A stretch of 64,000 bases of DNA from Candidatus Latescibacterota bacterium (GTDB taxonomy: Bacteria; Latescibacterota; UBA2968; GCA-2709665): contig CBDDDZ010000005.1 in the NCBI GenBank assembly GCA_965226795.1, forward strand, positions 1,583,920 to 1,647,919. Reading direction: 5' to 3'. Below, piece after piece: positions 1 to 56,795 of this stretch. Numbering within the stretch: position 1 is the first letter of the stretch; each line of letters opens with the position of its first letter. Made by a program: the position numbers and the translations under genes. Below the pieces are notes generated by a model. That model did not search any database and was not told the origin of the DNA. It was given only the letters and a program-made list of their open reading frames with translations.

Positions 1-565
1 ACGATGCGAATCCAAGACACCAGGATTGGAGGTTGCTTTTCAATCGTTCAATGGCGTCATCAGATGCAGACTGCAGGTCACGAGCAGCGTCAGCAGCGGA
101 GGCGGAAAGGAACTCGCCAACCACCTCAGGAGAAAACGCGCACAGTGCAGCAAGCGGCGTCATGCCAAAGTCAGTCCAATCGATGATCAAAACGGGAACG
201 CCATTCTTGCCACCATGCTGATCAAACGATTGAACGATCTTCTCGTTTACAGTACACGTCGCGCACAGAAACCAGCCTTCCAATGCCTCATCGCGTGCCA
301 GGGCCTGGTCGACTTCGCCAAGTAGTTCGCGTTCGCTCAAGCGCGTCTTATTACCGTACCTTTTGCATTCCAGGCGAAACCGCCTTCCCTGTTGTCCCGC
401 AGGTCCGGCATCAGCGCCGTGCTGAAAGCCGGAACTGGCGACTGCTATTGGCACGTCGAGCAGGCGCCCGATCAAAGCGGCTACTAGCTTCTCGAATCTG
501 GACGAGTCCTTCTCGTTCCGAAGCTCATGTTTAAGTTTGTCTAATGCTTCGGAAACCGACAACAT
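1..565 (-). CDS. PD-(D/E)xK (Mrr-like) nuclease-domain protein, N-terminal 188 codons only; the gene runs off the left edge
   Basis: Absent from the ORF track because it is truncated. Manual minus-strand translation from ATG 565-563 gives MLSVSEALDKLKHELRNEKDSSRFEKLVAALIGRLLDVPIAVASSGFQHGADAGPAGQQGRRFRLECKRYGNKTRLSERELLGEVDQALARDEALEGWFLCATCTV..., open down to base 2. GADAG...RLECK fits a D...ExK nuclease core. Confidence 0.5.
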   Translation of the reverse strand, partial: MLSVSEALDKLKHELRNEKDSSRFEKLVAALIGRLLDVPIAVASSGFQHGADAGPAGQQGRRFRLECKRYGNKTRLSERELLGEVDQALARDEALEGWFLCATCTVNEKIVQSFDQHGGKNGVPVLIIDWTDFGMTPLAALCAFSPEVVGEFLSASAADAARDLQSASDDAIERLKSNLQSWCLGFAS

Positions 566-785
566 TACGATGCCCAACGTGTAAATATCTCGTGAGCCAA
601 TCTCCCCACCGAGTTAAACGTTGTATATTGGGTGGAGAGGAGAGCGTGGGTTGCGGTCAAGAATCGATGTTGTAGAGAATTGCAGAGAGCGGTCTCTGGT
701 TGTGGAAGTCCCGTACGGGATGTCTACAACGCCGAGGCCTGATCCCGATGTTCAGAAGTGCGCGAACATTGCCATTTTCGAATAC

Positions 786-1772
786 CTATACTCCGACACC
801 TCGTAATTCGTTTCCGAGGATGAGGTTTTCTGGGGCGGGAACCCAATTATCTTCAGTGGGAACAAGTAGTTGAGCCCTAAGTTGCCGCTTGTACCGTAGG
901 AGTCCATCTGCCCTCCCCATATTTCGCAAATGTCTGGCCCTTGCAGAGTTCAAATGGATTGAGTAGTCGCCGTCAACATAAAGTAGTCCCGTGTCGTACG
1001 ATCGATGATGTAGAGTGCAAAGGGCCAAGCCATTGCTGAGTGCATCGAGGCCTTTTGGATGAGCATGAGGAACAATGTGGGCAGCATCCACAAGATCCAA
1101 TTGAATCCCGCACATTGCACACGTGTGAGCATATCCATCCAACACCATTTGCCTGAACTGAGCGCTTCGAGGATATGCAATACGGGTTATAGTGACTCTT
1201 TGTCGGTTTACCACAACTCGTCTGTAAAGGGGCTGTCCGAGCGGGGTTTTACAATGAACCTCGAACAACTCTCGGAGCTCTTCGTCGTCGGCTTGATGAA
1301 GCACCGATGAGTTTTCAACATACAAACCGATGAGGTCGGGCCGGAAGTTGATCACGTTTTGCCTGTCGGTATCGATATACGTAGAGAATCCCTTTGTCAT
1401 AGCCGTACGCATCGATGATAAACGCGTATAAATGGAAAACCGTTGGGCTCGCGGGTTACGTTCCAGGAATCTATCTGGATCCCACGCACTAAACCCCTTC
1501 ACATCTGCGGAAAATCCTAAGACCAATACTGTGTCGCCGGTTTGCTTGTCGTTGATTAATTTCGTAGGCAGATGGCCTGGGCACTGGATTCGGTATTCAT
1601 CTGGATCAGTGCGTTTAGCAAAGTGGACGTTACCAATGAATACCGAAAGATATCGTCCTTTATAATAGAATCGGTACGGGTTATCTCCACCGGCGAAGTA
1701 GACAGCATGCGTGTGCAGGCGGAAGGCGTCGAATAACGCATGAAATAGGTCTGTCTTGCCGAGTAGAGTCAT
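786..1772 (-). CDS. HNH endonuclease with an uncharacterised ~230-aa N-terminal domain
   Basis: ORF 786..1859. C-terminal HNH motif: CAMCG...AAHIVPHAHPKG...NGLALCTLHHRSYD. I prefer the ATG at 1772 (MTLLGK...), 19 nt after the methylase stop; the longer ORF start overlaps the upstream gene. Confidence 0.75.
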   Translation of the reverse strand: MTLLGKTDLFHALFDAFRLHTHAVYFAGGDNPYRFYYKGRYLSVFIGNVHFAKRTDPDEYRIQCPGHLPTKLINDKQTGDTVLVLGFSADVKGFSAWDPDRFLERNPRAQRFSIYTRLSSMRTAMTKGFSTYIDTDRQNVINFRPDLIGLYVENSSVLHQADDEELRELFEVHCKTPLGQPLYRRVVVNRQRVTITRIAYPRSAQFRQMVLDGYAHTCAMCGIQLDLVDAAHIVPHAHPKGLDALSNGLALCTLHHRSYDTGLLYVDGDYSIHLNSARARHLRNMGRADGLLRYKRQLRAQLLVPTEDNWVPAPENLILGNELRGVGV

Positions 1773-1791
1773 TTCGGATAAGCCTCGTTGA

Positions 1792-4700
1792 TCAAGCAGA
1801 CGAAATCTTTTCGACAATTCGAGAATCGATCGAGTATGTCGACGATATCCATTCGTCAATTTCGCGCAAACGACGATCGGCGTACAGCTCAGTGAGGCTT
1901 GATGGCATGAATCGTTCCTTTATCGAAGTAGGTATATTCTTCTCACCGGCATCCCGGTTTATACCGCGCACGAGTGAAACGAATGAGAACAACTCTTTAA
2001 GATCAACCCAACTTGCACCAATTCCTGAAAGGAACACGAAGTCGGCCCTTCTCGTTAGCGACGATAGACGTTGGTAGTTGAAATTGCCGATGTATTTGCC
2101 GGCGTTCTTCTTGAAGACAAGTGCAGAATATCTATAATTGTTCAGCACCTCTCCGATGATTGCCAATCGATGCAAATGATCCTTTGGGATCGAAGTGACC
2201 GGTGCAACGAGATCCTCAAGTAACCAATTTGTGACGTGGAATCCATCACCCCTCGTTAGCCAATACCAGAAACCCGCGTCGCCCCCTGTGATCGCGAGAG
2301 CCGCGAAGGCCTCCTCTTTCGAACCCAACGTCACCCAGCCGGATTGCGACGGAACATGAACACTTCGGCCATCGGGGTGCAATACTGGTGGCGGCTCAAT
2401 ATACGTGGAGATGAAATTGCGCGCGGTTGGCGAGAATCCCAACTTGAAGGATTCACCACGTAGACCGTGTCCGGAAGTTAAAACTGAAGTAGAAAACTGA
2501 TTGTGCATTGCTAATAATTTCGCTCCAAAACGGTTCGTTAGGCGGGGAATGCCGAAAGTTTCGTTCGGCATCACATCATCGACTTTGTTGTAGGATATAT
2601 TGTCCAACAGATAATCACGATAGGCTGCGCGCCACCTGTATAGCCGGGTAGCAAACGAACCGATTTTTCGAGCGGTGGTAGTTAGCCAGATTGTGCATCT
2701 CTGGCTAACTCCAGAAAACAGTGCGGCCGGTATGTTATCGAACGAAGAAAACCAGTGAGTCCCGGTGTTAGCCAAAAGTTCACGTAGACCTGAAAATTCA
2801 AAGCTAAATGTCGTTGAAAGAGGAACAATTAACCCACGGCGTCCGCACCGGCTTGTTATGCGGTGTGATTGTACGACCACGTAACCATATATATCGGGGA
2901 ATCTTAAGCTCGTGGTAGACCGTACTCTATAACCAACCGACTTTCGGTTTACGTAGGGAGGATTTCCGACAAGCACGTCAAATCCGCCCTGTCGCATGAT
3001 GCCGTAGAATTCGACAAACCAATGGAATGGCTGGTGACTGATACGCCATTGCTCATAGGAAGCCGTGTCGCTTTCTTGAACGCCGTACTCGCTTGCCAAA
3101 TATCGATCCAATTGTTGACGCAGATCATCTAATCGTCTTCGCAATTCTAACTTCGCATTGACGAAAGCACCGGCGTCCATGTTCAAGCCGATCTGCATCG
3201 TGTGGAATATGCGAAAAGCCCGGTTTGCTAATTCGGTGCGTTCTTCGATGTCGGGAAGAGATTGGACCTTGAACAAATCACCCGTTACTGCCAGTCTCAC
3301 ATCGTCGAGAGACGTAAAGCCAACCAGTGTGTTGCCGGCGCGTATGTTGAAATCGATGTCAGGTAGTGGCTCAATCTGTTCGTAGCTTTCCAGTTGCGCA
3401 ACGAGTTTCAAAAAGAGGCGCAATTTACAGATCTCGACGGCTTCTTCCATGATGTCAACGCCGTAGAGATTGTTGATAATGATGGACTTCAGTATGAAGT
3501 AGCGTTCGCTGGGGTGGGACTCGACCTGTTCCAGTATCTTTCGAAAGTCGCTCATTTTCTCGGGGCGGTGTTTACGCTTAGAGCGCTTCAGATCGTCCAG
3601 TAGCCCCCGCATAACCTCAAGGCAGGCAATGTAGACGGGCTCCAGGATGTTGAGCGCCGAGAACAGGAACGCGCCGGAGCCGCAGGTAGGATCCAGTATC
3701 GACACTCCGGTAATAGCCTTCCAGAAGGCGCGGATCAGTTCAGGGCCCTCGGTACCGGCGATGACGTCCTGAGCAAACTTCTCGACGTCGAGGTTGTACG
3801 TTATCAGGTCGTTGATTTCGGTGACCTCTCCTGAGGCGAGCTTGACGTAGACCTCCTCGTAGTGCCGACGGCGGGCTACGTGCTCCCGCCAGGTTTCCGT
3901 TGGCAGGGCATAGTCGCCTGTCGCGGGTTCGTTCCAGATGCCGCGTTTCGAGACGTCGTTGAGTCCTGCTGCAATCTCCGCTGGTAGTCCGCGCTCTTCC
4001 ACGAGGGCTTCGTTCTTGTGAATATCGTACGTGATCCCGTGACGGACGGCCTCGTAGAAATACCGATCCGGATCGTCCTGTAACAGCCGCCATACCCCAC
4101 CGTCGGGCTTGAATGCGATGGAACAGGCCTTTTTCGCCCTGTCGAAAAGGAACGGGATAACGGTATTGCGGCTGATGTATCCGGTGATATCCTCTTTGGT
4201 GTAGTAGGCACCCATCTGCTTCTGGTTGATGTATTTCTCGAAGATGTAACCGAGCACGTCGGGGTTGATTTCGTTGTCCTTGCGCAGCGTCCGGTCATCC
4301 AGGTGCCACGTATAGGCGTCGAAGAAGTCAAAGATTCTCTCGAACGCTTCATCGGGGATTTGGATATCCGGATTGTCCTGCTCCAGATCGTGCACGTCAA
4401 ACAGGCCGCCGTTAAGAAATGGCACCTTACCGAGCAACGCTGCCAACTCCGGGGGGCGATTCTCCTCCGGTTGCCCAAGACCGTCATGGAACAACCTCAA
4501 TAAAAACAGCCGGTAGAAACTGTTGAATCGCCCGTTTCCATATTGCTGCCGCACCCTTTGGAGCCGGTCCCGGAGGTATTCGGTGTTGTTGTCGAGGAAC
4601 CCGCGTTTTTGAATGAAGTAGATGAACATCATTCGATTCAACATCAGCGAAGCATACCACTCACGGTCAGCAACCGTCTCAATGCCTTCGATAAACCTCA

Positions 4701-5241
4701 AGAAATCCTGATGTTCCTTCTTGAATCGGTCGTAGAACCGTCTTGTGACCTTTTCTACGTCGAAGGCCGCGCGAACACGGCCGGATACGTCGACGATGGT
4801 AAGGTCATCTTCTTCGTCCAGTGTAAAGGCGAGATTCTCCAGCTTTTGGATCAGTCGCTCCCCTGTATCCTCCTTGCGGAAGGATTCCGACCGCAGGCGG
4901 TCGGCCTGCCCGAGTTCCCGTTTTACCCATTGCCAGGATTGCTCGGTTCGGTCGTGGGTGGCGTAAACGATGATGTGTTCACGGACTTCCTTCGCGACGG
5001 CCTTTTCGATTTTCGTGCGGGTGGAATGGTCGGGATACGTCGTCTCGGAGTCGGCGACGAACTGGTAGGCAACCATGCCTCGTTTGTGCGCGATGGCTTC
5101 GAGGGCGACCGACCGCTCACCTACTACAATGAAGGTATCAGCGCCTCCGTGGTCCCAGCCCAGTTCTTCGATGAAGAGCGTGCGCAGGTCGAAATTTTGC
5201 AGAAGCGATTTGACTCTGTTTCGATCTAAAATTGAAGGCAC
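1792..5241 (-). CDS. Large gamma-class N6-adenine DNA methyltransferase (Eco57I / Type IIG / PglX-like architecture), no recognisable nuclease domain
   Basis: 1149-aa ORF. AdoMet motif DPTCGSGAFLFSALN lies upstream of catalytic VLVGNPPYV. N-terminal ELGWD and LMLNRMMFIYFIQKRGFLD helper region typical of this family. ~450-aa C-terminal region is a candidate TRD. Confidence 0.85.
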   Translation of the reverse strand: MPSILDRNRVKSLLQNFDLRTLFIEELGWDHGGADTFIVVGERSVALEAIAHKRGMVAYQFVADSETTYPDHSTRTKIEKAVAKEVREHIIVYATHDRTEQSWQWVKRELGQADRLRSESFRKEDTGERLIQKLENLAFTLDEEDDLTIVDVSGRVRAAFDVEKVTRRFYDRFKKEHQDFLRFIEGIETVADREWYASLMLNRMMFIYFIQKRGFLDNNTEYLRDRLQRVRQQYGNGRFNSFYRLFLLRLFHDGLGQPEENRPPELAALLGKVPFLNGGLFDVHDLEQDNPDIQIPDEAFERIFDFFDAYTWHLDDRTLRKDNEINPDVLGYIFEKYINQKQMGAYYTKEDITGYISRNTVIPFLFDRAKKACSIAFKPDGGVWRLLQDDPDRYFYEAVRHGITYDIHKNEALVEERGLPAEIAAGLNDVSKRGIWNEPATGDYALPTETWREHVARRRHYEEVYVKLASGEVTEINDLITYNLDVEKFAQDVIAGTEGPELIRAFWKAITGVSILDPTCGSGAFLFSALNILEPVYIACLEVMRGLLDDLKRSKRKHRPEKMSDFRKILEQVESHPSERYFILKSIIINNLYGVDIMEEAVEICKLRLFLKLVAQLESYEQIEPLPDIDFNIRAGNTLVGFTSLDDVRLAVTGDLFKVQSLPDIEERTELANRAFRIFHTMQIGLNMDAGAFVNAKLELRRRLDDLRQQLDRYLASEYGVQESDTASYEQWRISHQPFHWFVEFYGIMRQGGFDVLVGNPPYVNRKSVGYRVRSTTSLRFPDIYGYVVVQSHRITSRCGRRGLIVPLSTTFSFEFSGLRELLANTGTHWFSSFDNIPAALFSGVSQRCTIWLTTTARKIGSFATRLYRWRAAYRDYLLDNISYNKVDDVMPNETFGIPRLTNRFGAKLLAMHNQFSTSVLTSGHGLRGESFKLGFSPTARNFISTYIEPPPVLHPDGRSVHVPSQSGWVTLGSKEEAFAALAITGGDAGFWYWLTRGDGFHVTNWLLEDLVAPVTSIPKDHLHRLAIIGEVLNNYRYSALVFKKNAGKYIGNFNYQRLSSLTRRADFVFLSGIGASWVDLKELFSFVSLVRGINRDAGEKNIPTSIKERFMPSSLTELYADRRLREIDEWISSTYSIDSRIVEKISSA

Positions 5242-5260
5242 TCGGAAGTCTCCTGAGGCA

Positions 5261-5734
5261 TTATGCCCGAACGAGATCGATTAGCGAAACAGCGTCGATT
5301 TCATCGAATGGTGCGAAGTCGGTCTGGTTCTGCGTTACCAGCTTTCGGATGCCATGGGTTGCCATTGTGGCAACGATATTGGCGTCATGCAACCGTTTGC
5401 CGTGTAGGCCATGTTTCAATGCAAGTTGTCGCAGTCTACGAGCGACGTCCTGGGTTTCGTCAAAGAGTTGCAGGTGACGCCGAAGCTCATTCACGTTCCC
5501 AACCGCGTCGCGTACGTTCAGACCAAGTCCGTTCGCGTCGAGGGGACGCGATGCGACAACCATGTATTCCCTTAGAATTTGCCCACTTCCGGCAAGGCGA
5601 AGACCGCGCCTACGGGACTCGGCCAGTAGCCTTATTGCTTCACGGTGTTGGGGCCGCGATTCGTCCGTCGCGGTCAAGAGCACGTTGGTGTCCAGAAACT
5701 GAATATTACCGGCCATCATCGCCATAGATCTCAT
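5261..5734 (-). CDS. vapC: PIN-domain ribonuclease toxin VapC (pair 1)
   Basis: NIQFLDTNVLL...ILREY...HDANIVATM...VTQNQTDF gives the PIN acidic pattern. It overlaps the upstream antitoxin stop. The true start is probably one of the ATGs at 5716-5725. Confidence 0.8.
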   Translation of the reverse strand: MRSMAMMAGNIQFLDTNVLLTATDESRPQHREAIRLLAESRRRGLRLAGSGQILREYMVVASRPLDANGLGLNVRDAVGNVNELRRHLQLFDETQDVARRLRQLALKHGLHGKRLHDANIVATMATHGIRKLVTQNQTDFAPFDEIDAVSLIDLVRA

Positions 5735-5978
5735 CCCGTTTCCACGACGTCGTGTTTCCAGTCTTGACTGTCACCAGTTCGAGCATTCGGGCATCCGCGC
5801 CTGTCGTCACTGTCCTGTCCAACGCATCAAGACGGGATTCATCAATAGACCTGGGACGAAAAATGAAGCCGTCAGGCGCTTTCTCAATCTCGAGATCGTC
5901 TCCGGGACCGACCCCCAGCATGTTTAGCACCCGTTTTGGTAGGGTGACCTGACGTTCTGAGCTTATCTTGACAATCAT
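5706..5978 (-). CDS. vapB: AbrB/SpoVT/MazE-fold antitoxin VapB (pair 1)
   Basis: MIVKISSERQVTLPKRVLNMLGVGPGDDLEIE is a swapped-hairpin AbrB-type N-terminus. GGAGG lies upstream of the ATG. Overlaps vapC. Confidence 0.8.
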   Translation of the reverse strand: MIVKISSERQVTLPKRVLNMLGVGPGDDLEIEKAPDGFIFRPRSIDESRLDALDRTVTTGADARMLELVTVKTGNTTSWKRDEIYGDDGR

Positions 5979-6122
5979 GGGATCCTCCTTTTAACCAGAT
6001 GGTTTTTGACTTTGTTTCTGTCCAGTTTCGTTGGCATTCGGAACGTCCGGATTATAGAGTTGGTGCTGGCTTTAATCGGGCAATGATGTGGTCAGAGCGG
6101 GATTGGACCGAAACGCTTTTTT

Positions 6123-6521
6123 CTACAATTGACGGGCGTCGGGCATGGCGGCCATCTTTTGATCCAGCGTCAGGACTTGCATGTCAGCGCGTGAATAGTC
6201 GTCGGCGATAAGCCGGTCAAACAGGCCCGCGCCGCCGGAAGCCTCAAGGGATTCGATAACCGAGCGCCCGTTCAGAGGGGAGACCAGGCCGCTGCGCAGC
6301 GCGTCGAGTAATGAGGTTCGTGCATCGGCTTTTGATACGCCATAGTGGTGCTGTACCGCAACGTAGGTCTCACCAACGACCTGGTTTGAAACGAAGATCT
6401 CGTGGCCATGCTCGTTGACCAGCGCACCAAGTTTGCTTACGCAATACGCGAAGTCTTCTTGCGGGTCTCTGGTGAGTAACCGCACGAGAACTGACGTGTC
6501 AATCCCGAAGCGAAGGGTCAT
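6123..6521 (-). CDS. vapC: PIN-domain toxin VapC (pair 2)
   Basis: ORF 6123..6560. Preferred ATG at 6521 (MTLRFGIDTSVLVRLL...), overlapping the antitoxin 3' end. PIN D-T-S/N motif near the N-terminus. Confidence 0.75.
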   Translation of the reverse strand: MTLRFGIDTSVLVRLLTRDPQEDFAYCVSKLGALVNEHGHEIFVSNQVVGETYVAVQHHYGVSKADARTSLLDALRSGLVSPLNGRSVIESLEASGGAGLFDRLIADDYSRADMQVLTLDQKMAAMPDARQL

Positions 6522-6741
6522 ACGATTGCTCCCGGAAGTCCTGGAGATCAAACGTCCCACGTCCGCGCCGGATCTTTTCGCGCAACGTACCGAGACGGGA
6601 GTGATCGATGCGTCTGGGCCTCAGGGCGAACCCGTCGGGCCCTTCTACGATTTCGAGTTGGTCGCCCGGGCCGACCCCAAGAGCGTCCAGCACCCGCGCA
6701 GGAAAGGTCACCTGGCGTTTTGAAGTTATTTTGACAATCAT
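6499..6741 (-). CDS. vapB: AbrB/SpoVT-fold antitoxin VapB (pair 2)
   Basis: MIVKITSKRQVTFPARVLDALGVGPGDQLEIVEGPDGFALRPRRID. By manual alignment, 37 of the first 53 residues are identical to the pair-1 antitoxin. Confidence 0.8.
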   Translation of the reverse strand: MIVKITSKRQVTFPARVLDALGVGPGDQLEIVEGPDGFALRPRRIDHSRLGTLREKIRRGRGTFDLQDFREQSYDPSLRD

Positions 6742-6750
6742 GGCATACCT

Positions 6751-6778
6751 CCTTACTGATAATGATAATAAAGTAAGG
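6751..6778 (-). promoter_or_regulatory. Inverted repeat (7-bp arms, 14-nt AT-rich loop) between the helicase stop and the vapB2 start; its right arm overlaps the vapB2 Shine-Dalgarno
   Basis: Minus strand reads CCTTACT-ttattatcattatc-AGTAAGGAGGtatgccATG. Candidate VapB operator or translational hairpin. Confidence 0.3.
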
Positions 6779-6786
6779 TGAAAGCG

Positions 6787-9700
6787 TCAAGTCTGGCGTC
6801 TGATCAATCCCATAGAGCAGATGATTCGCGGTTCATCAGGTTCATCCTCACCGTGGATGATACAAAGCCGCCCATCCCCCCGCATTTCGATGACCAGTCC
6901 GACCAAGTCGTCATCCGAGATTCCACTGCGCAATTGGCGGTTCAGCGTATCCACCGCGGATTGGCGCAGCGGATATCGGTATATCTCGCCCACTGCCCTG
7001 CGAAGTTGTTCTGTATCGAAGAGTGTGCCCTCGACCCTCTCGGCGTGATTCTTAAGCCGTTCATAGGTGCGGAAGTGCGCACCCGAGGGTCGTCCCAGTT
7101 GGCCCCCGACCTGATTCTCCTCCTTCGCTATGCGCTCAGCGGCTTTTCGTACAAGATCGTGATGGGTTTCGTGCCGGGGAAGCGCCGGTGTATTCGGTTT
7201 GCATTCGGCGGCCCGGAGAATTTCGAACTGGCTTTCGGTGACGCTGCCCCCTTTCCGATCCATCCACGCGAGGGCATCATTGTCCTGTGTTGTGCGCATG
7301 TATACGAGTACACCGTCCTGCCGGGCCGGTGTATGTGAGCCGGCTTTGGAGGAATGGACGACGTCCGGCATCTGCTCCACCTTCTTCTCCAGCGACGGAT
7401 CGGCAGTCGTGGCGTTTCTCCAGATCTGGTAGGCATACGACGCAAGATCCACCTCGGAATCGTCATCGCCATCGAGGACTCCGGTCTGTTCGTTATATAG
7501 ATCGACCACCGCAAGAGTGTCCTCGTCCTCAAAAAAGGCTTCGTCGGTTCCGACCACTTCGGCGTTCTCTTCGAGGCGCTGCCGTACCCGGGCTCGCAGC
7601 CGAATCAGACGTTCGATGCCCTCCGCGGGAAGGAAGGAATAGCAGAGGATGTTCGGCGCCGATTGGCCGATTCGGTCCACGCGGCCGGCTCTCTGGATCA
7701 GCCGGATGATTGCCCAGGGAAGGTCGTAATTGACGACAATGGCGCAATCCTGAAGGTTCTGTCCCTCGCTCAACACATCCGTGGCAACCAGCACCCGGAG
7801 TTCCTCCTCCGGCGCGATCTGCCCGCCTTTGTCGTTGCTTTTGGGACTGAACCGCCAGGCCAAGCGAGTGGGATCCGCGGAGTCGCCCGTAACGCCCGAC
7901 AGCCGTTCGACGCCTCTACCCATTAACCGACGTTCCAGGTATTGCACGGTGTCGGCGAACTGCGTGAACACCAGAACCTTCTCACCTGGATGTTTATCCA
8001 CAAGGATCTTCTGCAGAGCGGCAAGCTTGGCATCCTGAGACGGAATCCATTCACCGAATCCCTCCAGCATTTCACGTAACGTTCTCGCATCCGTCACCAG
8101 GGCTTGCCGAAGTGTCTCGTCGAAATGACGCGGGCTGAGCCAGCGAAATCGCCTGCTGTATCGTTCGCGGTAGGCATCGTAGACTTGTGCGGCGTGCCGC
8201 CGGAAGTCTTCTTCGGTTCTCAGAACGTGTTGTGTATGAACTTCGCCCCTGCCGTCCTCTTCTTCTTCAAAAATGTCGCCGGCAGCGCCGTCCGGATCCG
8301 CGTCGAAAGATTGAGGGTCCAGAAGCCCGGCGTCGGTTGTGCCGACCGGCAGATCCAGACCGTTTTCGATGGCGTGGATAAAGATGAAGTTCCTCAGCAC
8401 ATGCCGCTCGACCGACAGCAGGAACGAATGACCGCTGCTTTCAAGGCGTTTGAGCAGGTTCGTCCGGCAGAATCCCATCAGGCGCCTGCCTGCCCGTGAA
8501 AGGTCTTGCAGGATTTGGCCTTCGTTCGGCGATGGCGGCGGATCGGCCAAGGAGGTCAAGTAGTTTGCCAGACCGTAGCGCGGGAGTTCCAACCCGTTGA
8601 TTGCGGACACGACGTTTTCGTCAAAGAGCCGCGCGTACTGGTTGTCGATATCGAAGCCGACGGTCCTGGGAACGCGGACCGGGAAATAGGATCGCGTTCC
8701 GTCTTCGAATGTCAGATATCTTCGCCCGTTAGCTGGATCCAACGTGGCGTAGTTTTCTTGAATGAAACTGCGGGTTCGACGTACGAGGTACAGGCGCATC
8801 AATTCACGCCAGTCGTCGGTATATTCCGAATGGTCGAATGCCGCAAGTGACCGGACAGAAGCCTGGTGGCGGCGAATGAATTCGGTCTCACCGATCTCTC
8901 GCAACAGGCGTTCAGGTCGGATGCCCAGGTCTTCATTCTCATGCACAAACAATCGGATCTGGTTTGAGAGATCCTGGTACGTCTTGTTATATGGCGTAGC
9001 CGAAAGCAGAATGCACTTGCTTTCGTTTTCCCGGATGTATTCCTGAATTGCACGGTACCGCTTTCCCTCACGGTTTCTCAGATTGTGACTCTCGTCAATC
9101 ACAACCAGCCTGTACCGGCGCATGTCAGGGAGTTCCCGGGGCGCACGGCTGATCGAAAGCACGCGCGCACGTAACCGATACTCGTCACGATAGTCCTCCC
9201 ACATCGGCACCAGGTTCTTGGGGCAGATAATCAGCGTTTCAACCCCATAATCGTCTTCAAACACCCGCGCTAAAGCCGTGGCCATCAGCGTTTTACCGAG
9301 CCCCACGACGTCGCCGATTATGACGCCGCCACGCTTGTTCAGGTGATGCGCGGCAATCTTGACGGCGGCCGTCTGGAAATCGAGCAGTTTGTTGCCGAAA
9401 TCTTTCGGAATGCGGAATTCCGTCAAACCCACCCGGGCTTCCTGCGATAGATGGTATGCCATCTTCACATAAATGTGGTACGGGGGGATCAACCGCACCC
9501 CCGCCCAACTCTCATCGATGATCTCCGCGAGTTCCTCAGAGATATCGACGCACCAGCGGTCGCACCAGCGATCTTCGAACCATTGGGCGAGCTTCCCACA
9601 TGCATCGTGCTCAAGAACGTCCACGTTGAGTTCGCCCTGGCCGGAAAGACCGGCTTGCGTAAGATTGCTGCTGCCCAGGTACCCGACCGTTGGATTGATG

Positions 9701-10149
9701 GGATCCTGCCGGAAAAGCATGTAGAGCTTGGCATGGAGCGGATGTCTGAGGAAGAGTTTGACAACGACCTTTTTGGACTTGATCTGCCTTGACAACCTGC
9801 GCAGCCCGGCCTCGTCCGCGTTGCTCGGCGCACCCGTGGCCAATTGGTCTCTGAATTCCTCGGCCAGACGTTTCTTCAGCCGAATGGCGGTCTGATTATC
9901 GAGTTTCCCATCCTGGGCGGTCAGACTCCTGGCGATTCGAAACTCCTCGTGCGGCAAGCGATGTATGCCCACCAGCAGGCGGCAACAGTGTCCCTCCCCA
10001 CCCTTCCATTTTTCAACATATTCATCGATCGCCCGCCACCCGCGCAGGTTGAAATAACCCACGCAGAAATCCGCGCGGTCGGAAACCGCCAGGGTCTCCG
10101 CCAAAGCCGGCAAGAGACGCTGTTCGATATTGTCGAAAATACGTGGCAT
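6787..10149 (-). CDS. Phospholipase-D (HKD) nuclease domain fused to an SNF2/SF2 helicase
   Basis: 1120 aa. N-terminal single HKD motif: RHPLHAKLYMLF...GYLGSSNLTQAG. Helicase motifs GDVVGLGKTLMA (I), VIDESHNLRN (II), LLSATPYNK (III), VATDVLSEGQNLQD (V), QRAGRVDRIGQ (VI). Confidence 0.85.
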   Translation of the reverse strand: MPRIFDNIEQRLLPALAETLAVSDRADFCVGYFNLRGWRAIDEYVEKWKGGEGHCCRLLVGIHRLPHEEFRIARSLTAQDGKLDNQTAIRLKKRLAEEFRDQLATGAPSNADEAGLRRLSRQIKSKKVVVKLFLRHPLHAKLYMLFRQDPINPTVGYLGSSNLTQAGLSGQGELNVDVLEHDACGKLAQWFEDRWCDRWCVDISEELAEIIDESWAGVRLIPPYHIYVKMAYHLSQEARVGLTEFRIPKDFGNKLLDFQTAAVKIAAHHLNKRGGVIIGDVVGLGKTLMATALARVFEDDYGVETLIICPKNLVPMWEDYRDEYRLRARVLSISRAPRELPDMRRYRLVVIDESHNLRNREGKRYRAIQEYIRENESKCILLSATPYNKTYQDLSNQIRLFVHENEDLGIRPERLLREIGETEFIRRHQASVRSLAAFDHSEYTDDWRELMRLYLVRRTRSFIQENYATLDPANGRRYLTFEDGTRSYFPVRVPRTVGFDIDNQYARLFDENVVSAINGLELPRYGLANYLTSLADPPPSPNEGQILQDLSRAGRRLMGFCRTNLLKRLESSGHSFLLSVERHVLRNFIFIHAIENGLDLPVGTTDAGLLDPQSFDADPDGAAGDIFEEEEDGRGEVHTQHVLRTEEDFRRHAAQVYDAYRERYSRRFRWLSPRHFDETLRQALVTDARTLREMLEGFGEWIPSQDAKLAALQKILVDKHPGEKVLVFTQFADTVQYLERRLMGRGVERLSGVTGDSADPTRLAWRFSPKSNDKGGQIAPEEELRVLVATDVLSEGQNLQDCAIVVNYDLPWAIIRLIQRAGRVDRIGQSAPNILCYSFLPAEGIERLIRLRARVRQRLEENAEVVGTDEAFFEDEDTLAVVDLYNEQTGVLDGDDDSEVDLASYAYQIWRNATTADPSLEKKVEQMPDVVHSSKAGSHTPARQDGVLVYMRTTQDNDALAWMDRKGGSVTESQFEILRAAECKPNTPALPRHETHHDLVRKAAERIAKEENQVGGQLGRPSGAHFRTYERLKNHAERVEGTLFDTEQLRRAVGEIYRYPLRQSAVDTLNRQLRSGISDDDLVGLVIEMRGDGRLCIIHGEDEPDEPRIICSMGLIRRQT

Positions 10150-10213
10150 CAGGCCGTCCTTCTATGGTCTCAGGTCAGCACCGTCTTTAGATTGCAAGAA
10201 TTCGACAATACCA

Positions 10214-10242
10214 GATATAGGCAAGAATACGGCGTATGTCAA
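10214..10242 (-). promoter_or_regulatory. Predicted sigma-70-type promoter of the helicase operon
   Basis: Minus strand reads TTGACA - 17 nt - TATATC, with the -10 about 65 nt upstream of the ATG at 10149. The -35 overlaps the IS256 target-site duplication. Confidence 0.3.
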
Positions 10243-10246
10243 CCGG
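10238..10246. repeat. Target-site duplication GTCAACCGG (left copy)
   Basis: An identical 9-mer directly abuts both ends of the IS element (10238-10246 and 11662-11670). Confidence 0.75.
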
Positions 10247-10640
10247 GGGGTGTCAAGAATATTGTGTAAGTGGCGTTGGTGGATCAATGAAAAGGGACGC
10301 GATCGTCGAACATGATGGCGAAGCGATTCAGTGCGGCTTTCCAGTTGATTACGGGTTTGGTCCAGCGTTTGCTGATGTTGCGAAGGGCCAGAAACAGGAG
10401 CTTGATGGCGGCTTCATCGGAAGGGAACGCGCCCCGATTTTTAGTGATCTTGCGCAACGACCGGTTCATGGACTCAATGGCATTGGTGGTGTAGATGACT
10501 TTGCGGATGTCTTTGGGATAGGCGAAGAACGGGATGATATGCTCCCAGTGCTTGCGCCACGATTTTGAAATGGAGGGATAGTGTTCATCCCAGGTCGCTT
10601 CGAAGGCGCTCAGGTTCATCTCTGCTTCTTCGACGGTGGC

Positions 10641-10677
10641 GGCCTGCCTGCGCCGTGCTGTACTCGGCAGGCAGGCC
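10641..10677. repeat. 37-nt hairpin element inside the transposase C-terminal segment
   Basis: GGCCTGCCTGC - 15 nt - GCAGGCAGGCC. It adds the in-frame peptide CLPSTARRRQA between IYQA and ATVEEAE. Confidence 0.6.
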
Positions 10678-11278
10678 TGGTAAATCGGCTTAAGATCGGC
10701 GGCGACGTTTTTCCGGTCCTTCCAGGTCACAAAGCGTAGCGCGTTGCGGACCAGATGCACGATGCATAAAGTTGTACCTGGGTCTTGGGGTATACCGTCT
10801 CAATGGCCTTAGGGAAGCCTTCCAGGCCATCGACGCAGACGATAAAGATGTCCTTAAGGCCCCGGTTCTGCAACTGCGTAAGCACCGACAGCCAAAATTT
10901 GGCACCCTCGCTTTTTGAGACCCACAGCCCGATGAGCTCCTTCTCACCGTGCAGATTAAGGCCTAAGGCCAGATAGATGGCCTTCTTCTGCACGGTGCCT
11001 TCGTCGCGGATTTTGACGAAGAGCGCATCCAGGTAAACGATGGGATAGACCTCGTCCAAAGGCCGATTCTGCCAGGCTTTGACCTCGTCGATAACCCCAT
11101 CGGTGATGTTGGAGATCAGCTGTGGTGAGACGTTGACGCCATACATCTCTTCCAAATGCCCCTGGATCTCCCGATCGGTCATGCCACGGGCATATAACGA
11201 GATGACTTTGTCGTCAAAACCCTTCAGACGCCGTTGATGTTTGGGCACGATGTGCGGCTCAAAATCGCCGTTGCGGTC

Positions 11279-11303
11279 CCGCCTGCCTGCAGCAGGCAGG
11301 CGG
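11279..11303. repeat. 25-nt perfect palindrome inside the transposase N-terminal segment
   Basis: CCGCCTGCCTGC-a-GCAGGCAGGCGG. Removing 19 nt (11282-11300) restores ...[13 protein letters not shown]... Confidence 0.6.
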
Positions 11304-11661
11304 CACAGCAAGGGTCACTTCATTCTGGTCGGTCTTGACCTTTTTGCACGTCTTGCCATTTCTTGAATTGCCGCTGCCTCGACCTGCTGGATCGCCTTTC
11401 TCATACCCCAGGTGATCGGCCATCTCATCCTCGAGCATTCGCTCCAACACCCGTTTTGTCAGCTGCTTGAGGATCCCGTTTTCACCCAGAAGATCTTCGG
11501 CGCGTTTGCCGTCATCGACCAGGTCGTCAACCAACTCGTCCAGCAGCGCCTCACGGTCTTTTTCCTTGTTGGCCATATCTTCTCCTCTCGGAATGATCGT
11601 TTGCGTTACTATACGCATTCCTGAAGGTTATGACCTCTTACACAAACTAATTTACACTCTC

Positions 11662-11670
11662 GTCAACCGG
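11662..11670. repeat. Target-site duplication GTCAACCGG (right copy)
   Basis: See the left copy. Confidence 0.75.
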
Positions 11671-11869
11671 CCAGTTTTACACTCTCCTACCCTATAAAAT
11701 ATTATATTGTTGATAACAATATGCTTAGCGTGACTTTCACCAGGTTTCTTACTGTGTCCAGCGGTGTTCTGCACGTAGTGTCACCCTATAGGACGAATAG
11801 TTAGAATCTCCTTCTCTTGCCGAATCAGCTACATCTTCCGATGAAACGGTTCCGAGTGTAAGGTTCAAA

Positions 11870-11923
11870 AAAGCAGATCAAACAATAAAATGGCCATTCA
11901 AACGAGAAATTTGAATGGCCATT
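11870..11923 (-). terminator. Hairpin plus T-tract; probable intrinsic terminator downstream of the 12170..13174 gene
   Basis: Perfect 14-bp stem AATGGCCATTCAAA / TTTGAATGGCCATT (11889-11902 and 11910-11923) with a 7-nt loop. On the minus strand it is followed by ttttattgtttgatctgctttttt. Confidence 0.45.
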
Positions 11924-11996
11924 GTTAAAACAAAAGTTGGACGAAAGTCTCGCCTGCTCCTGCGCAGCGCCTTCATATGTGTTTTTCTTCTTGTCC

Positions 11997-12013
11997 ACAA
12001 ACTGACAGTTTGT
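11997..12013. repeat. Palindrome ACAAACTG-a-CAGTTTGT
   Basis: 8-nt arms with a single-nt centre. Shares CCACAAACTGnCAGTTTGT with the palindrome at 55231-55257. Confidence 0.6.
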
Positions 12014-12054
12014 TTTACGAGACGCTGCTGACCGAGCACAACATCCAATGGTAT

Positions 12055-12073
12055 CGCGAACTGTCAGTTCGCG
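12055..12073. repeat. Palindrome CGCGAACTG-t-CAGTTCGCG
   Basis: 9-nt arms with a single-nt centre and the same AACTG-N-CAGTT core. Confidence 0.6.
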
Positions 12074-12169
12074 GGATGCAAGCAGCCTCTCCTTACAGGC
12101 AAGTCAGATCTTGATTCGACCTCTCATGGGGTTTGTCAGGCTAATTCAAACGATATTTAGAACAATGGG

Positions 12170-13174
12170 TCACGCGGATTGTTGGACAATTGTCTGGAGG
12201 CGTTCGTGAAAATGCGAGAGTATATCGCCCGTCTTCTCCGCGATCGCAATAGGTGTTTGCTTACAAAAGTCGAACTCCCATTTATAGGCTGTCACCCACG
12301 TACCTCGTCGATTTCGGGTCACTTGGCCCTTTACTGGACACGTTGAACACGATTTTGTGACAGAAGGACGAAGTTCTGCCCACCTTTCGGCGATTTCTTC
12401 ATTCTTGATAGCGGCCTTTAGGCAAAACGTGTCCCAGTTGAATTCCCAGTAGAGTTCAATTGCATCGGTTTTGGGGCTACACGCTATCCACCCCTTCTGC
12501 CAGTTCATGACCGGATTATTACTTCCACTATATATCGCCCAATTTTGATGGTGTCCGTTCTCAAGATGCTCCCGCAACTTGCCATAGTACATATAGAAAA
12601 CTGAAAATCCGGGTCGATAACCCTCGTTGCGCAGGCGCGGGTCCCACGGATGATCTAGCAACTGAAGAACCTTGTCAATTTCGTTAGTGCGGGTTTGTTC
12701 CGCTTCTAGTGATGCAATCCACCCATCGTATATGTTGCACCTGCCCGCAATCGGAAGATTTGAGAAGACTTCCAGCGCGTAAAGTAGATCAATCGTGCGA
12801 AATCCGCAGCGCAGAAATTCCCTGCTCTTGTGTCCGATGGTGAACTGTGCTGCTCCAACTGCAAGCGAAATCACAGCAAAGTGCGCGTTCGGTACTCGCT
12901 CAGAAAATGCCTTTTCGCTCCGCTGCAATTGTTCGAGACTTACATCCGAATCAGTCTTGCATTCGATCAGTAGATATGTCTTTTCGTCATCTATCCTGTC
13001 CATTTCCAAAACGAGGTCGATACGAAGTCGCCGACCGAAAGAGTACTCTCGTATCGCCTTGCCCCGCCTGAGTCCTACACCTTGCAGGAGGTCGGGGGCG
13101 AGCCCTGAAATGACTGCCGTTCGTTCATCAAGTGGGAGACGCGAACTCTCACAATCAAGGAGCCAGGCGATCAC
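12170..13174 (-). CDS. PD-(D/E)xK nuclease-superfamily protein (orphan) in an AT-richer islet
   Basis: 334-aa ORF. RIDLVLEMD...TYLLIECKTD fits the D...ExK core. The C-terminal half (YWEFNWD...) is uncharacterised. Confidence 0.55.
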   Translation of the reverse strand: MIAWLLDCESSRLPLDERTAVISGLAPDLLQGVGLRRGKAIREYSFGRRLRIDLVLEMDRIDDEKTYLLIECKTDSDVSLEQLQRSEKAFSERVPNAHFAVISLAVGAAQFTIGHKSREFLRCGFRTIDLLYALEVFSNLPIAGRCNIYDGWIASLEAEQTRTNEIDKVLQLLDHPWDPRLRNEGYRPGFSVFYMYYGKLREHLENGHHQNWAIYSGSNNPVMNWQKGWIACSPKTDAIELYWEFNWDTFCLKAAIKNEEIAERWAELRPSVTKSCSTCPVKGQVTRNRRGTWVTAYKWEFDFCKQTPIAIAEKTGDILSHFHERLQTIVQQSA

Positions 13175-13544
13175 ACCGGTGTGGATCTTTTCGAGTTAGA
13201 AACCGACGATATCGACAAATGTCTTCGCCACCTGATGCGTTCACCTCCATCCACAACGCTGGAATTGTCTTCGCGTTAGTCCGGAATCTATTGACTCATT
13301 CGAGCGATGTCAAGATATCCAATAACGGTGATCGAATTCTTCATTCTCAACTGCATCACGATTCTTCAAATAAACGCCTTTAAGCGAATTGAATCCAGGT
13401 GGACTTAGCGATTCCTTTGAGTATCTTGGGGCCTAATTCCGCATAAATCTACTACGCCAACATATTGCGGATCAACAAGATATTCAGGAGATTTACAAAA
13501 AGAACGGAAATTTGGTTGGCCGCATCAGATGTCGATGCAATATC

Positions 13545-17164: not shown

Positions 17165-17240
17165 TGGAGCGGGAAACGGGACTCGAACCCGCGACATCAA
17201 GCTTGGGAAGCTTGTGCTCTACCAGCTGAGCTATTCCCGC
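17165..17240 (-). tRNA. tRNA-Gly (anticodon CCC), CCA encoded
   Basis: The reverse complement GCGGGAATAGCTCAGCTGGTAGAGCACAAGCTTCCCAAGCTTGATGTCGCGGGTTCGAGTCCCGTTTCCCGCTCCA folds as a cloverleaf. Anticodon loop is TTCCCAA. Confidence 0.9.
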
Positions 17241-55463: not shown

Positions 55464-55540
55464 TGGTCGGGGCGCCCGGATTCGAACCGGGGGCCTCCTG
55501 CTCCCGAAGCAGGCGCTCTACCGGGCTGAGCCACGCCCCG
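55464..55540 (-). tRNA. tRNA-Pro (anticodon CGG), CCA encoded
   Basis: The reverse complement CGGGGCGTGGCTCAGCCCGGTAGAGCGCCTGCTTCGGGAGCAGGAGGCCCCCGGTTCGAATCCGGGCGCCCCGACCA folds as a cloverleaf. Anticodon loop is TTCGGGA. Confidence 0.9.
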
Positions 55541-56718: not shown

Positions 56719-56795
56719 TGGTCGGAGCGACTGGATTTGAACCAGCGACCCCTATCACCCCAAGATAGTGCGCTACCGGGCTGCGCCACGCTCCG
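56719..56795 (-). tRNA. tRNA-Pro (anticodon GGG), CCA encoded
   Basis: The reverse complement CGGAGCGTGGCGCAGCCCGGTAGCGCACTATCTTGGGGTGATAGGGGTCGCTGGTTCAAATCCAGTCGCTCCGACCA. Anticodon loop is TTGGGGT. Confidence 0.9.

Follow-up and report, generated by a model that had tools for sequence, protein, structure and literature searches.

The left end of a 64,000-nucleotide stretch of a Candidatus Latescibacterota genome (contig CBDDDZ010000005.1; the whole stretch is called the window below) carries a minus-strand gene cluster whose core is a helicase-nuclease gene and a DNA methylase gene. We estimate at about 70% the probability that these two genes encode a two-subunit, ATP-dependent, Type III/ISP-like restriction-modification (R-M) system of an unnamed, widespread family, joined in this genome by accessory genes. 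A preliminary description, made from the sequence alone, had reported seven co-directional minus-strand genes here, and both this layout and every motif that it quoted agree with our reading of the open reading frames (ORFs) and with profile searches. Along the minus strand the order is helicase, antitoxin 1, PIN toxin 1, antitoxin 2, PIN toxin 2, methylase and HNH protein. The successive spacings, read from the DNA, are 45 nt after the helicase gene, an overlap, 144 nt between the two toxin-antitoxin (TA) pairs, an overlap, 19 nt before the methylase gene and a further 19 nt from its stop at 1792 to the start codon (ATG, 1772) of the gene for the 328-aa HNH protein.

The helicase-methylase pair is conserved in many relatives. 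A search for methylase homologues returned thousands of relatives, the best 120 of which were all at least 56% identical. A scan with a methylase alignment, limited to a single genome for each species, yielded 80 loci (L001–L080) from many phyla (Latescibacterota, Dehalococcoidia, Poribacteria, Nitrospirota, Acidobacteriota, Proteobacteria, Cyanobacteria and others), in which the presence of neighbours was scored by tblastn with the window proteins. In about 72 of the 80 loci the methylase gene is immediately preceded by the helicase gene, and most exceptions are contig ends or disrupted copies. All 80 loci encode the two proteins on separate ORFs. The estimated gap from helicase stop to methylase start is between -9 and +17 nt in about 45 of the 67 loci with a full-length helicase, and helicase identity between loci correlates with that of the methylase core (Spearman 0.60). 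Judged by these arrangements, the two genes are inherited together and, in most relatives, appear to be translationally coupled. When the 1272 ORFs of the 80 loci were clustered, only three families occurred in more than nine loci: the methylase, the helicase and a DprA-like protein of about 210 aa. The preliminary description had expected the helicase, methylase and HNH genes to be conserved as a trio; the conserved unit is instead the helicase-methylase pair, with the HNH protein present in only 9 of the 80 loci. Many of the loci come from Poribacteria, Entotheonella, Latescibacterota and Dehalococcoidia, several of which are common sponge symbionts known for their dense R-M and TA content.

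The helicase gene (6787..10149, minus strand) encodes a 1120-aa HKD(PLD)-SNF2 helicase-nuclease, the predicted restriction and motor subunit. Its N-terminal domain is a PLDc_2 (3.8e-7)/RE_NgoFVII-type HKD domain (residues ~110–198), followed by SNF2-rel_dom and Helicase_C (all Pfam), so that the fusion of one HKD motif to a complete SNF2/SF2 motor, as first read from the sequence, is upheld by profile matches as well as by motifs. There is a single HxK...GSSN motif (H139, K141, G159–N162), and the motor motifs are GLGKT (283–287), DESH (352–355), SATP (~383–386) and QRAGRVDRIGQ (819–829). Across 68 homologues, 319 of the 1120 positions are at least 97% identical, and these include H139-x-K141, G159-S-S-N162, GLGKT, DESH and QRAGRVDR. 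Where an HKD protein has one motif per chain, two chains form one active site, as in Nuc, BfiI, SauUSI and the MANTIS effector MtsD; therefore, two helicase chains would be needed for one nuclease site. The closest solved structures to the motor are the SNF2 motors of ISWI, Chd1 and RapA and the Sulfolobus SNF2 protein, and the ResIII model matches only at the motif II region (342–387). By homology, the motor is a genuine SNF2-family translocase, and SNF2 motors translocate on duplex DNA. The best PADLOC match of the helicase is an 'HKD+Snf2' model (C3a139, 1.1e-46). Among 1.84 billion representative proteins, 2067 matched the helicase at E ≤ 1e-30; about 60 full-length representatives of clusters at 50% identity align end to end at 36–62% identity. 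A tblastn search of plasmids also found full-length relatives in cyanobacteria, Pelobacter, Rhodococcus and others, named by NCBI only as 'helicase-related protein'.

The methylase gene (5241–1792, minus strand) encodes an N6-adenine methylase of 1149 aa that matches Pfam Eco57I (PF07669, 2.1e-20) and MmeI_Mtase (PF20473). The motifs DPTCGSGAF (517–525) and NPPY (760–763) stand in gamma order and are invariant in our methylase alignment (A1), which bears out the earlier assignment as a 1149-aa gamma-type methylase with DPTCGSGAFL before NPPY. The conserved part (aa 1–763; 2953..5241) comprises an N-terminal alpha/beta domain, a helical region, motif I (DPTCGSGAF) and motif IV (NPPY). It is followed by an exchangeable C-terminal module (aa ~764–1149; 1792..2952), delimited by a drop in identity, by breakpoints and by GC content, which contains the rest of the catalytic domain and a presumed target-recognition region.

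We propose that the methylase would act as a Mod-like specificity subunit, marking one strand of a short asymmetric site, as has been proposed for M.Ssp6803IV (GA(m6A)AGGC). At unmethylated sites it would recruit or license the helicase, the SNF2 motor of which would then translocate on double-stranded DNA. Cleavage would need an HKD dimer, either pre-formed or made when two complexes meet, and inverted pairs of sites may be favoured by analogy with Type III, Type ISP and MANTIS systems.

The only family member with any experimental data lies on plasmid pSYSX of Synechocystis PCC 6803. The gene order there is helicase-related protein, a 75-aa DUF2281-like gene, VapC, an 1100-aa DNA methyltransferase and DUF2513. 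End-to-end homology of both core proteins and the helicase-then-methylase adjacency place this locus in the same family, with the same gene order and a PIN toxin pair between the core genes. The pSYSX helicase is 50.6% identical to that of the window over residues 1–1118, and the methylase is 43% identical over 1019 residues and has the same Pfam domains. The pSYSX locus has no HNH protein of the window's type and no DprA-like gene within 9 kb, and its methylase C-terminus is different. By plasmid, length and Pfam domain, rather than by locus tag, the 1100-aa methylase matches slr6050/M.Ssp6803IV. Deletion of slr6050 never segregated, and the gene was judged essential (Hagemann et al. 2018, PMC6105098), as an active cognate restriction partner would predict. 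The R-M pair reading would thus explain why this gene of a model cyanobacterium cannot be deleted. The helicase is not mentioned by Hagemann et al. 2018, and the connection between methylase and helicase was not drawn (PMC6105098).

Two plasmid neighbourhoods deserve separate mention. Beside the pSYSX copy (L081:16924-19545, minus strand of the locus) are genes for DUF6527, ThiF family adenylyltransferase, E2/UBC family and multiubiquitin domain-containing proteins; this looks like a ubiquitin-like conjugation cluster, and hence a defence-island-like setting. On Nostoc punctiforme pNPUN01 (L084:14078-18103), the gene after the helicase encodes a 1341-aa 'RNA-binding domain-containing protein' that aligns to the window methylase in two pieces only (residues 5–390 and 513–646) and appears to be a rearranged or fused variant.

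As the methylase has the gamma-class domain in a chain of ~1000+ aa that is typical of Type IIG/IIL enzymes (Eco57I, MmeI), we considered whether it is a self-contained enzyme of this kind and the HKD-SNF2 protein an independent neighbour, such as a SauUSI-like, modification-dependent (Type IV) enzyme. The PADLOC model REase_MTase_IIG (PDLC03628) matches residues 5–889 at 1.7e-280, the N-terminal 135-aa domain has an alpha-beta-beta-beta-alpha-beta-type layout with weak Foldseek matches to restriction-endonuclease-fold proteins, and weak HSDR_N similarity was reported for Slr6050 (Hagemann et al., PMC6105098). SauUSI and MtsD also show that PLD-helicase fusions can act as nucleases themselves. 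However, the methylase has no match to any nuclease hidden Markov model (HMM), even at E ≤ 5 for the N-terminal 150 aa, in keeping with the preliminary description of a methylase that lacks a recognisable nuclease. Pfam searches of the N- and C-terminal pieces at E ≤ 5 found neither a nuclease nor a target-recognition model. Seven N-terminal-domain residues are invariant (K53, E79, E88, H89, W103, W105, R108), and they contain no conserved D...(D/E)xK pattern. Adjacency in about 72 of 80 loci, overlapping or near-touching codons and co-variation are not expected of chance neighbours, and a Type IV enzyme beside its own methylase would be self-toxic unless it read a different mark. Therefore, we regard a self-contained Type IIG/IIL enzyme as unlikely. 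Automated tools would probably call the methylase Type IIG and ignore the helicase, a label that, from the sequence features above, seems doubtful. REBASE- and PADLOC-style models probably mislabel a large conserved family as 'Type IIG' while its actual nuclease is ignored. If the pair were recognised as a motor-driven R-M type with two subunits, many annotations would be corrected.

Exchange of the methylase C-terminus and the MTaX1-HNH nuclease

Across the loci, identity to the window methylase is 67–86% for aa 150–650. Beyond aa 850 it is ~20% or less in loci without the HNH gene and 60–80% in HNH-linked loci; residues 750–1149 stay 56–82% identical in the nine HNH-linked loci. Clustering of the regions beyond NPPY+120 gave three C-terminal classes. 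Class B contains the window, all nine HNH-linked loci and two Poribacteria loci that lack the HNH gene. In the pairs of loci compared, DNA similarity is lost at locus positions 12288–12330, corresponding to methylase residues ~763–776, directly after NPPY; where pairs realign, similarity resumes at or shortly before the DprA-like gene. At the equivalent position in the window (~nt 2950), GC content falls from 0.54–0.57 to 0.48–0.49. Furthermore, pairwise identities of the C-terminus track neither the helicase nor the DprA-like protein (Spearman 0.01 and -0.01), as expected for a swapped specificity module.

The gene that follows the methylase (786..1772, minus strand) encodes a 328-aa MTaX1-HNH nuclease with a restriction-endonuclease-fold N-terminal domain (Pfam MTaX1, 'methylase-associated X1', 9.5e-15) and a TagI/McrA-type HNH domain (Pfam HNH_2, 1.7e-10). 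The preliminary description of a 328-aa protein that ends in an HNH motif was right about the motif and its place 19 nt downstream of the methylase; the protein continues for about 60 residues after the HNH domain. In an AlphaFold2 (AF2) model built with 38 homologues, the predicted local distance difference test (pLDDT) is mostly above 90 for residues 1–170 and poor for the zinc-dependent HNH core. The nearest Foldseek matches of the MTaX1 domain are I-Ssp6803I, Hjc, RecU and the SPARDA nuclease domain, all of the PD-(D/E)xK fold; the best match is modest (probability 0.99, E 2.4e-3). Five MTaX1 residues are invariant (D15, D58, E59, R61, Q63) and could form an active or a degenerate site. 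A profile-profile comparison of MTaX1 with the methylase N-terminus gave a probability of 0.1, with no detectable relationship. The HNH part is closest to TagI (PDB profile match, 3.6e-8) and McrA, and the protein matches the NCBIfam PT-DNA restriction endonuclease model at 1.6e-16, below the cut-off.

Like TagI, EcoKMcrA and ScoMcrA-type enzymes, the protein has a reader domain followed by an HNH_2 domain. The readers of those enzymes are SRA or SBD domains, whereas the reader here is MTaX1, of restriction-endonuclease fold and encoded next to a methylase. From this arrangement, MTaX1-HNH probably reads the unmodified state or another mark. The Aravind laboratory has described MTaX1 as a possible discriminator of modified DNA that occurs in several R-M systems (PMC10853773).

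MTaX1-HNH is confined to loci with class-B methylase C-termini, and the nearest relatives of the HNH-linked loci by helicase and methylase core often lack it. For example, L003 and L014 differ in both the C-terminal module and the HNH gene, while their helicases are 94% and their methylase cores 91% identical. L008 differs from L031 and L044 in the same way with helicases 93% identical, and the window differs from the HNH-less L009 with helicases 86% identical. Across the differing pairs with helicases 93–94% identical, the methylase core is 81–91% identical. By these comparisons, MTaX1-HNH is exchanged together with the class-B module, which argues for functional coupling, by shared sequence specificity or by physical docking. 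In our proposed mechanism it would be a second nuclease tied to the class-B C-terminus, either recognising the same site or docking on the module. The idea that the HNH protein is the cognate enzyme of one fixed specificity was weakened: class-B C-termini of Dehalococcoidia and Latescibacterota are only 46–48% identical, and two class-B loci lack the HNH gene.

The same observations could be taken to mean that MTaX1-HNH is the working restriction enzyme, paired with the methylase in classical Type II-like fashion, and that the HKD-SNF2 protein is auxiliary or a back-up. The start of its gene 19 nt after the methylase stop, its occurrence only with class-B C-termini and its exchange along with them fit such a pair, as do the restriction-endonuclease fold of MTaX1 and the Aravind laboratory's view of the domain (PMC10853773). 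However, 71 of the 80 loci lack MTaX1-HNH and keep the pair, the nuclease motifs of the helicase are fully conserved also in the HNH-linked loci, and two class-B methylases occur with no HNH gene. This account is therefore improbable.

The DprA-like gene and interchangeable cargo

A DprA-like gene lies downstream of the methylase in 62 of the 80 loci (tblastn), and all 56 copies among the clustered ORFs are on the methylase strand. Its distance from the methylase gene ranges from overlapping to 7.4 kb, and unrelated cargo can intervene. The protein (207–214 aa) matches Pfam DNA_processg_A, a DprA-like Rossmann domain, and the PADLOC models for PsyrA (2e-12 to 1.2e-17) and ShosA. Its identity between loci follows that of the methylase core (Spearman 0.64) and of the helicase (0.48). 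PsyrA and ShosA are DprA-like antitoxins, and the analogy with them makes the protein a candidate regulator. About nine loci, most of them from Dehalococcoidia, carry a SMODS nucleotide-synthetase gene immediately before the DprA-like gene (for example L008:14731-15570, L040:16210-17049, L044:17197-18036, L048:16007-16849 and L058:17514-18356); this adjacency hints at a nucleotide-signal link for the DprA-like protein in some lineages.

These features raise the question of whether the locus is chiefly a TA or abortive-infection device, in which the helicase-nuclease is a toxin that the DprA-like protein, methylation or both keep inactive (compare the RecQ-like PsyrT and its antitoxin PsyrA) until infection frees it to act against host and phage DNA. 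Co-inheritance of the DprA-like gene in 62 of 80 loci, its matches to PsyrA (1.2e-17) and ShosA, and the adjacent SMODS genes are compatible with this, and suicide action has been proposed by the Aravind group for other HKD-SF2 systems. The likeness to PsyrTA and Shosta extends to PsyrA partnering a helicase toxin. Those toxins, however, are RecQ-like or PRTase proteins, whereas here there is an HKD-SNF2 and methylase pair with the DprA-like gene up to 7.4 kb away behind unrelated cargo. Moreover, three plasmid relatives keep the pair with no DprA-like gene within 9–10 kb, and a methylase of swappable specificity is a hallmark of self/non-self marking, not of a TA switch. We consider this alternative quite improbable.

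Neither the window nor the adjoining 4.6 kb on its left side contains a DprA-like gene; those 4.6 kb are covered by a public contig (L082) that is identical to window positions 1–3337 and ends ~1 kb short of where the gene would be expected. Two collinear relatives encode a 207-aa DprA-like protein (L085:16855-17478 and L086:16984-17607) 0.6–1.2 kb past the point at which L082 ends. Because of this synteny, the genome of the window most likely carries a DprA-like gene about 5–6 kb left of position 1. The preliminary suggestion that further components may lie left of the window thus gains a specific candidate.

The truncated gene at the window's edge (1..565, minus strand), which had been proposed as an Mrr-like component, is a different matter. 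It encodes the first 188 aa of a large cargo protein with a D...ECK motif, has no Pfam match and is homologous to the N-terminus of an intact 1546-aa ORF in L086 (11208–15848), which is itself Pfam-less, with an N-terminal D...ECK motif and weak P-loop matches. As the gene is not conserved with the system, we rejected it as a component. The window-lineage copy of the 1546-aa gene is split into four frame segments (L082:2773-7412), which is either a pseudogene or an assembly error. To its left, L082 carries an MNT-type nucleotidyltransferase gene, and L085 and L086 continue leftward with a small gene, another MNT gene, accompanied in L085 by a HEPN gene, and finally the DprA-like gene.

Cargo of this kind occupies two slots. 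Slot 1, between helicase and methylase, varies by locus: it is filled by VapBC of the two types, a PDDEXK_3 protein, AbiEi/AbiEii or a protein that contains a reverse transcriptase. Slot 2, from the methylase to the DprA-like gene, holds PIN proteins, MTaX1-HNH, SMODS, OLD/ABC-type ATPases, MNT/HEPN pairs, Schlafen-type proteins or transposases.

In the window, slot 1 contains two VapBC pairs, as first described, each made of a MazE/AbrB antitoxin and a PIN toxin on overlapping ORFs. The first pair consists of an AbrB/MazE-type, VapB-like antitoxin (6499..6741, minus strand; Pfam MazE_antitoxin 8.8e-10, NCBIfam AbrB) and a VapC-like PIN toxin (6123..6560, minus strand, likely start ATG 6521; Pfam PIN 5.3e-6). 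The second consists of an antitoxin of the same type (5706..5978, minus strand; Pfam MazE_antitoxin 4e-9) and a VapC family PIN toxin (5261..5734, minus strand; Pfam PIN 1.7e-11, NCBIfam VapC subfamily 4.9e-14). By its sequence, each pair has the layout predicted for VapBC type II TA modules, in which a small antitoxin gene overlaps the downstream PIN toxin gene. Pair 1 occupies the same slot in L005, L013, L016, L021, L028, L049 and L063, and PIN toxin 2 does so in L001, L010, L047 and L062; either type is found between the two core genes in about 14 of the 80 loci (tblastn). Close relatives, even at 90% identity, differ in what the slot contains. The window has VapBC1 and VapBC2, L002 has PDDEXK_3, VapB1 and a VapC1 stub, and L001 has PDDEXK_3 and VapBC2. 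Contrary to the preliminary view that these addiction modules are embedded parts of the system, the comparison indicates that they are interchangeable passengers in an insertion hotspot. They may serve there as autonomous addiction or backup modules.

Taken together, the two slots and the exchange of a specificity module plus effector right after NPPY suggest a route by which defence repertoires diversify. A broader reading, which we put forward only tentatively, is that the locus is a modular defence chassis. Its left arm would be the helicase gene and the first ~763 methylase codons, its right arm the DprA-like gene, and the cassette between them would be swapped by homologous recombination. 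Each cassette would combine a specificity module with effectors that match it or act as back-up (MTaX1-HNH, PIN_12/Dsr1-like proteins, OLD/ABC ATPases, MNT-HEPN, Schlafen, SMODS), the DprA-like protein would be a regulator or antitoxin of the helicase-nuclease, and the specificity of MTaX1-HNH would be matched to class-B C-termini. If so, a single exchange would alter the target sequence and the second-line weapons at once, and one methylase would protect against two different nucleases.

Relation to named systems

The cluster had been described as fitting no named system. In part this stands, since Type ISP, Type III, DISARM, BREX and MANTIS systems each fail at least one of the defining features that we tested. 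The family is nevertheless already represented in existing resources, by the PADLOC Type IIG match (1.7e-280), the PADLOC 'HKD+Snf2' model, a passing mention in a paper and M.Ssp6803IV in REBASE. The pair has been seen before, and we found neither a name nor a functional study for it: a literature search returned passing mentions only, at least one of them by Milman et al., and no paper naming or testing the pair. An earlier description in the Aravind laboratory's 2015 SLOG paper is possible.

The preliminary description favoured a split Type ISP system. Type ISP enzymes (LlaGI, LlaBIII) do share the domain inventory of nuclease, double-stranded DNA translocase, gamma N6-adenine (N6A) methylase and target-recognition region, the last two being seen here in the motif order and the variable C-terminus. 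Cleavage on collision of converging motors would be a plausible shared logic. This likeness does not amount to membership: Type ISP enzymes are single chains with an N-terminal Mrr-family PD-(D/E)xK nuclease, whereas here there are two chains from separate ORFs, a dimerising HKD domain of the PLDc_2/RE_NgoFVII type and a true SNF2-family motor. The Type III Res/Mod, DISARM drmD-drmMI and MANTIS MtsD/MtsC pairs are equally close analogues.

Type III systems (Mod/Res, EcoP15I) are ATP dependent and hemimethylate asymmetric sites. They resemble the pair in having two subunits, a specificity methylase and an SF2 ATPase-nuclease, and an asymmetric site for the window system may be supposed from M.Ssp6803IV. 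However, Type III Mod is a beta-class methylase with an internal target-recognition region, whereas the window methylase is gamma-class, of Eco57I type and ~1100 aa, and no Mod-type model matches it. The Res subunit carries its PD-(D/E)xK nuclease at the C-terminus and uses a motor of the ResIII type, in contrast to the N-terminal HKD domain and SNF2 motor here, and the Type III gene order is the reverse of that in the window.

In MANTIS (also Gao_RL or BREX-related type 2; MtsA–D), the effector MtsD is likewise an HKD/PLD nuclease fused N-terminally to an SF2 motor, a feature found here as PLDc_2 (residues 110–195), SNF2-rel_dom and Helicase_C. The MtsD dimer, seen by cryo-EM, has two SF2 motors with a single PLD site above them; restriction by MANTIS is strongest at unmethylated sites in inverted orientation, and the MANTIS N6A methylase hemimethylates 6-bp asymmetric sites (bioRxiv 10.64898/2026.09.23.753747). 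MANTIS, however, requires a DUF499 AAA+ ATPase (MtsA), a small co-regulator (MtsB, DUF3780) and a DUF1156-type methylase, none of which is found in the window or among the recurrent neighbours in the 80 loci. Lacking an AAA+ loader, the pair would be a minimal counterpart to MANTIS, DISARM and BREX for studying how unmethylated DNA might pass from a methylase to an HKD-SNF2 motor.

DISARM class 1 also places an SNF2 helicase beside a large Eco57I-like N6A methylase (drmD-drmMI) and includes a PLD nuclease. That nuclease is a separate protein, DrmC, whereas the PLD domain of the window is fused to SNF2, and DISARM is defined by DrmA, DrmB and DrmC. No drmA, drmB (DUF1998) or drmC gene is present among the seven genes, in the L082 left extension or in L085 and L086, and none recurs in the 80 loci. 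The PglZ and BrxC families are absent from the neighbourhood census of the 80 loci and from the left extension. Thus, the early view of a restriction-like operon that is neither BREX nor DISARM holds: no equivalent of PglZ, BrxC, DrmA or DrmB recurs in the window, the left extension or the 80 loci. That the cluster, which lies at the window edge and weakly matches DrmD, DrmMI, PglX and BrxH, is a remnant of DISARM class 1, BREX or MANTIS with its other genes outside the window is very unlikely indeed, as the NCBIfam DISARM_DrmD (128.3 bits on the helicase against a cut-off of 610) and BREX_1 PglX (56.6 against 500) scores are far under curated cut-offs, the left extension and two collinear relatives hold no PglZ, BrxC, DUF499, DUF1998 or DUF1156 gene, and only the methylase, helicase and DprA-like families occur in more than nine loci.

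Several points weigh against a two-subunit R-M system as we propose it. Restriction, methylation, protection and contact between helicase and methylase are predictions for this family, drawn from sequence. The SNF2/SF2 partners in DISARM, BREX and MANTIS do not act like simple Res subunits, and cleavage by MtsD was not reconstituted in vitro (bioRxiv 10.64898/2026.09.23.753747). The methylase AF2 model (18 sequences) is poor, with a pLDDT of 55, and is confident only for residues 1–135. A Foldseek search of it against the PDB gave nothing at E ≤ 0.001, and the matches of this N-terminal domain to restriction-endonuclease-fold proteins are weak (E > 0.03), so an unconventional N-terminal nuclease is possible. 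The GA(m6A)AGGC motif was assigned to M.Ssp6803IV tentatively, by elimination and from REBASE, and recombinant Slr6050 could not be produced (Hagemann et al. 2018, PMC6105098); the failure of the slr6050 deletion to segregate could also have other causes. The DprA-like gene is not universal, as seen in the three plasmid relatives examined (cyanobacteria and Pelobacter), and the two class-B Poribacteria loci without the HNH gene (L030 and L035) count against its coupling to the module.

Promoter, insertion sequence and flanking genes

The helicase gene is preceded by a sigma-70-like promoter read from the sequence (10214..10242, minus strand), consisting of TTGACA (10242–10237), a 17-nt spacer and TATATC (10219–10214), 65 nt upstream of the start codon. 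A consensus promoter scanner left this site out because the last base of its -10 element is C. The same motif with the same spacing is present in L002, a syntenic Candidatus Latescibacterota chromosome with the same flanking genes and ~90–93% DNA identity. The preliminary description had placed all seven genes behind one predicted promoter. A sigma-70-like motif does exist upstream of the helicase; however, a second promoter-like site (6790–6762) precedes the first antitoxin gene, so the genes may be transcribed from more than one promoter.

Directly upstream, outside the system, is an IS256-family insertion (10247..11661, minus strand; NCBIfam transpos_IS256 4.9e-71 and 2.7e-36). A 9-bp target duplication, CCGGTTGAC, borders it on either side (10238–10246 and 11662–11670), and reading of the junctions shows that it has no counterpart in L002. 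The insertion point is the -35 element itself. As the target duplication restores TTGACA, the promoter motif of the operon survives the insertion intact and matches the L002 motif exactly. The transposase gene is spread over three frames (11618–11259, 11311–10727 and 10760–10284) and is thus either decayed or contains assembly errors.

The window contains tRNA-Gly(CCC) (17165–17240), tRNA-Pro(CGG) (55464–55540) and tRNA-Pro(GGG) (56719–56795) genes, and the right edge of the island, a GC step at ~13.5 kb, adjoins none of the three. Between the IS element and the syntenic chromosomal genes is a variable stretch of low GC content (11671–13548; 0.47–0.49). It holds a 334-aa ORF (12170–13174, minus strand) with only a weak PDDEXK_4 match (E 0.005). 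Between this ORF and the upstream region of the operon lies a terminator-like element (11889–11923, minus strand), a perfect hairpin with a 15-bp stem and a T-rich tail. In place of window positions 11671–13548, L002 has a different stretch of 3.2 kb.

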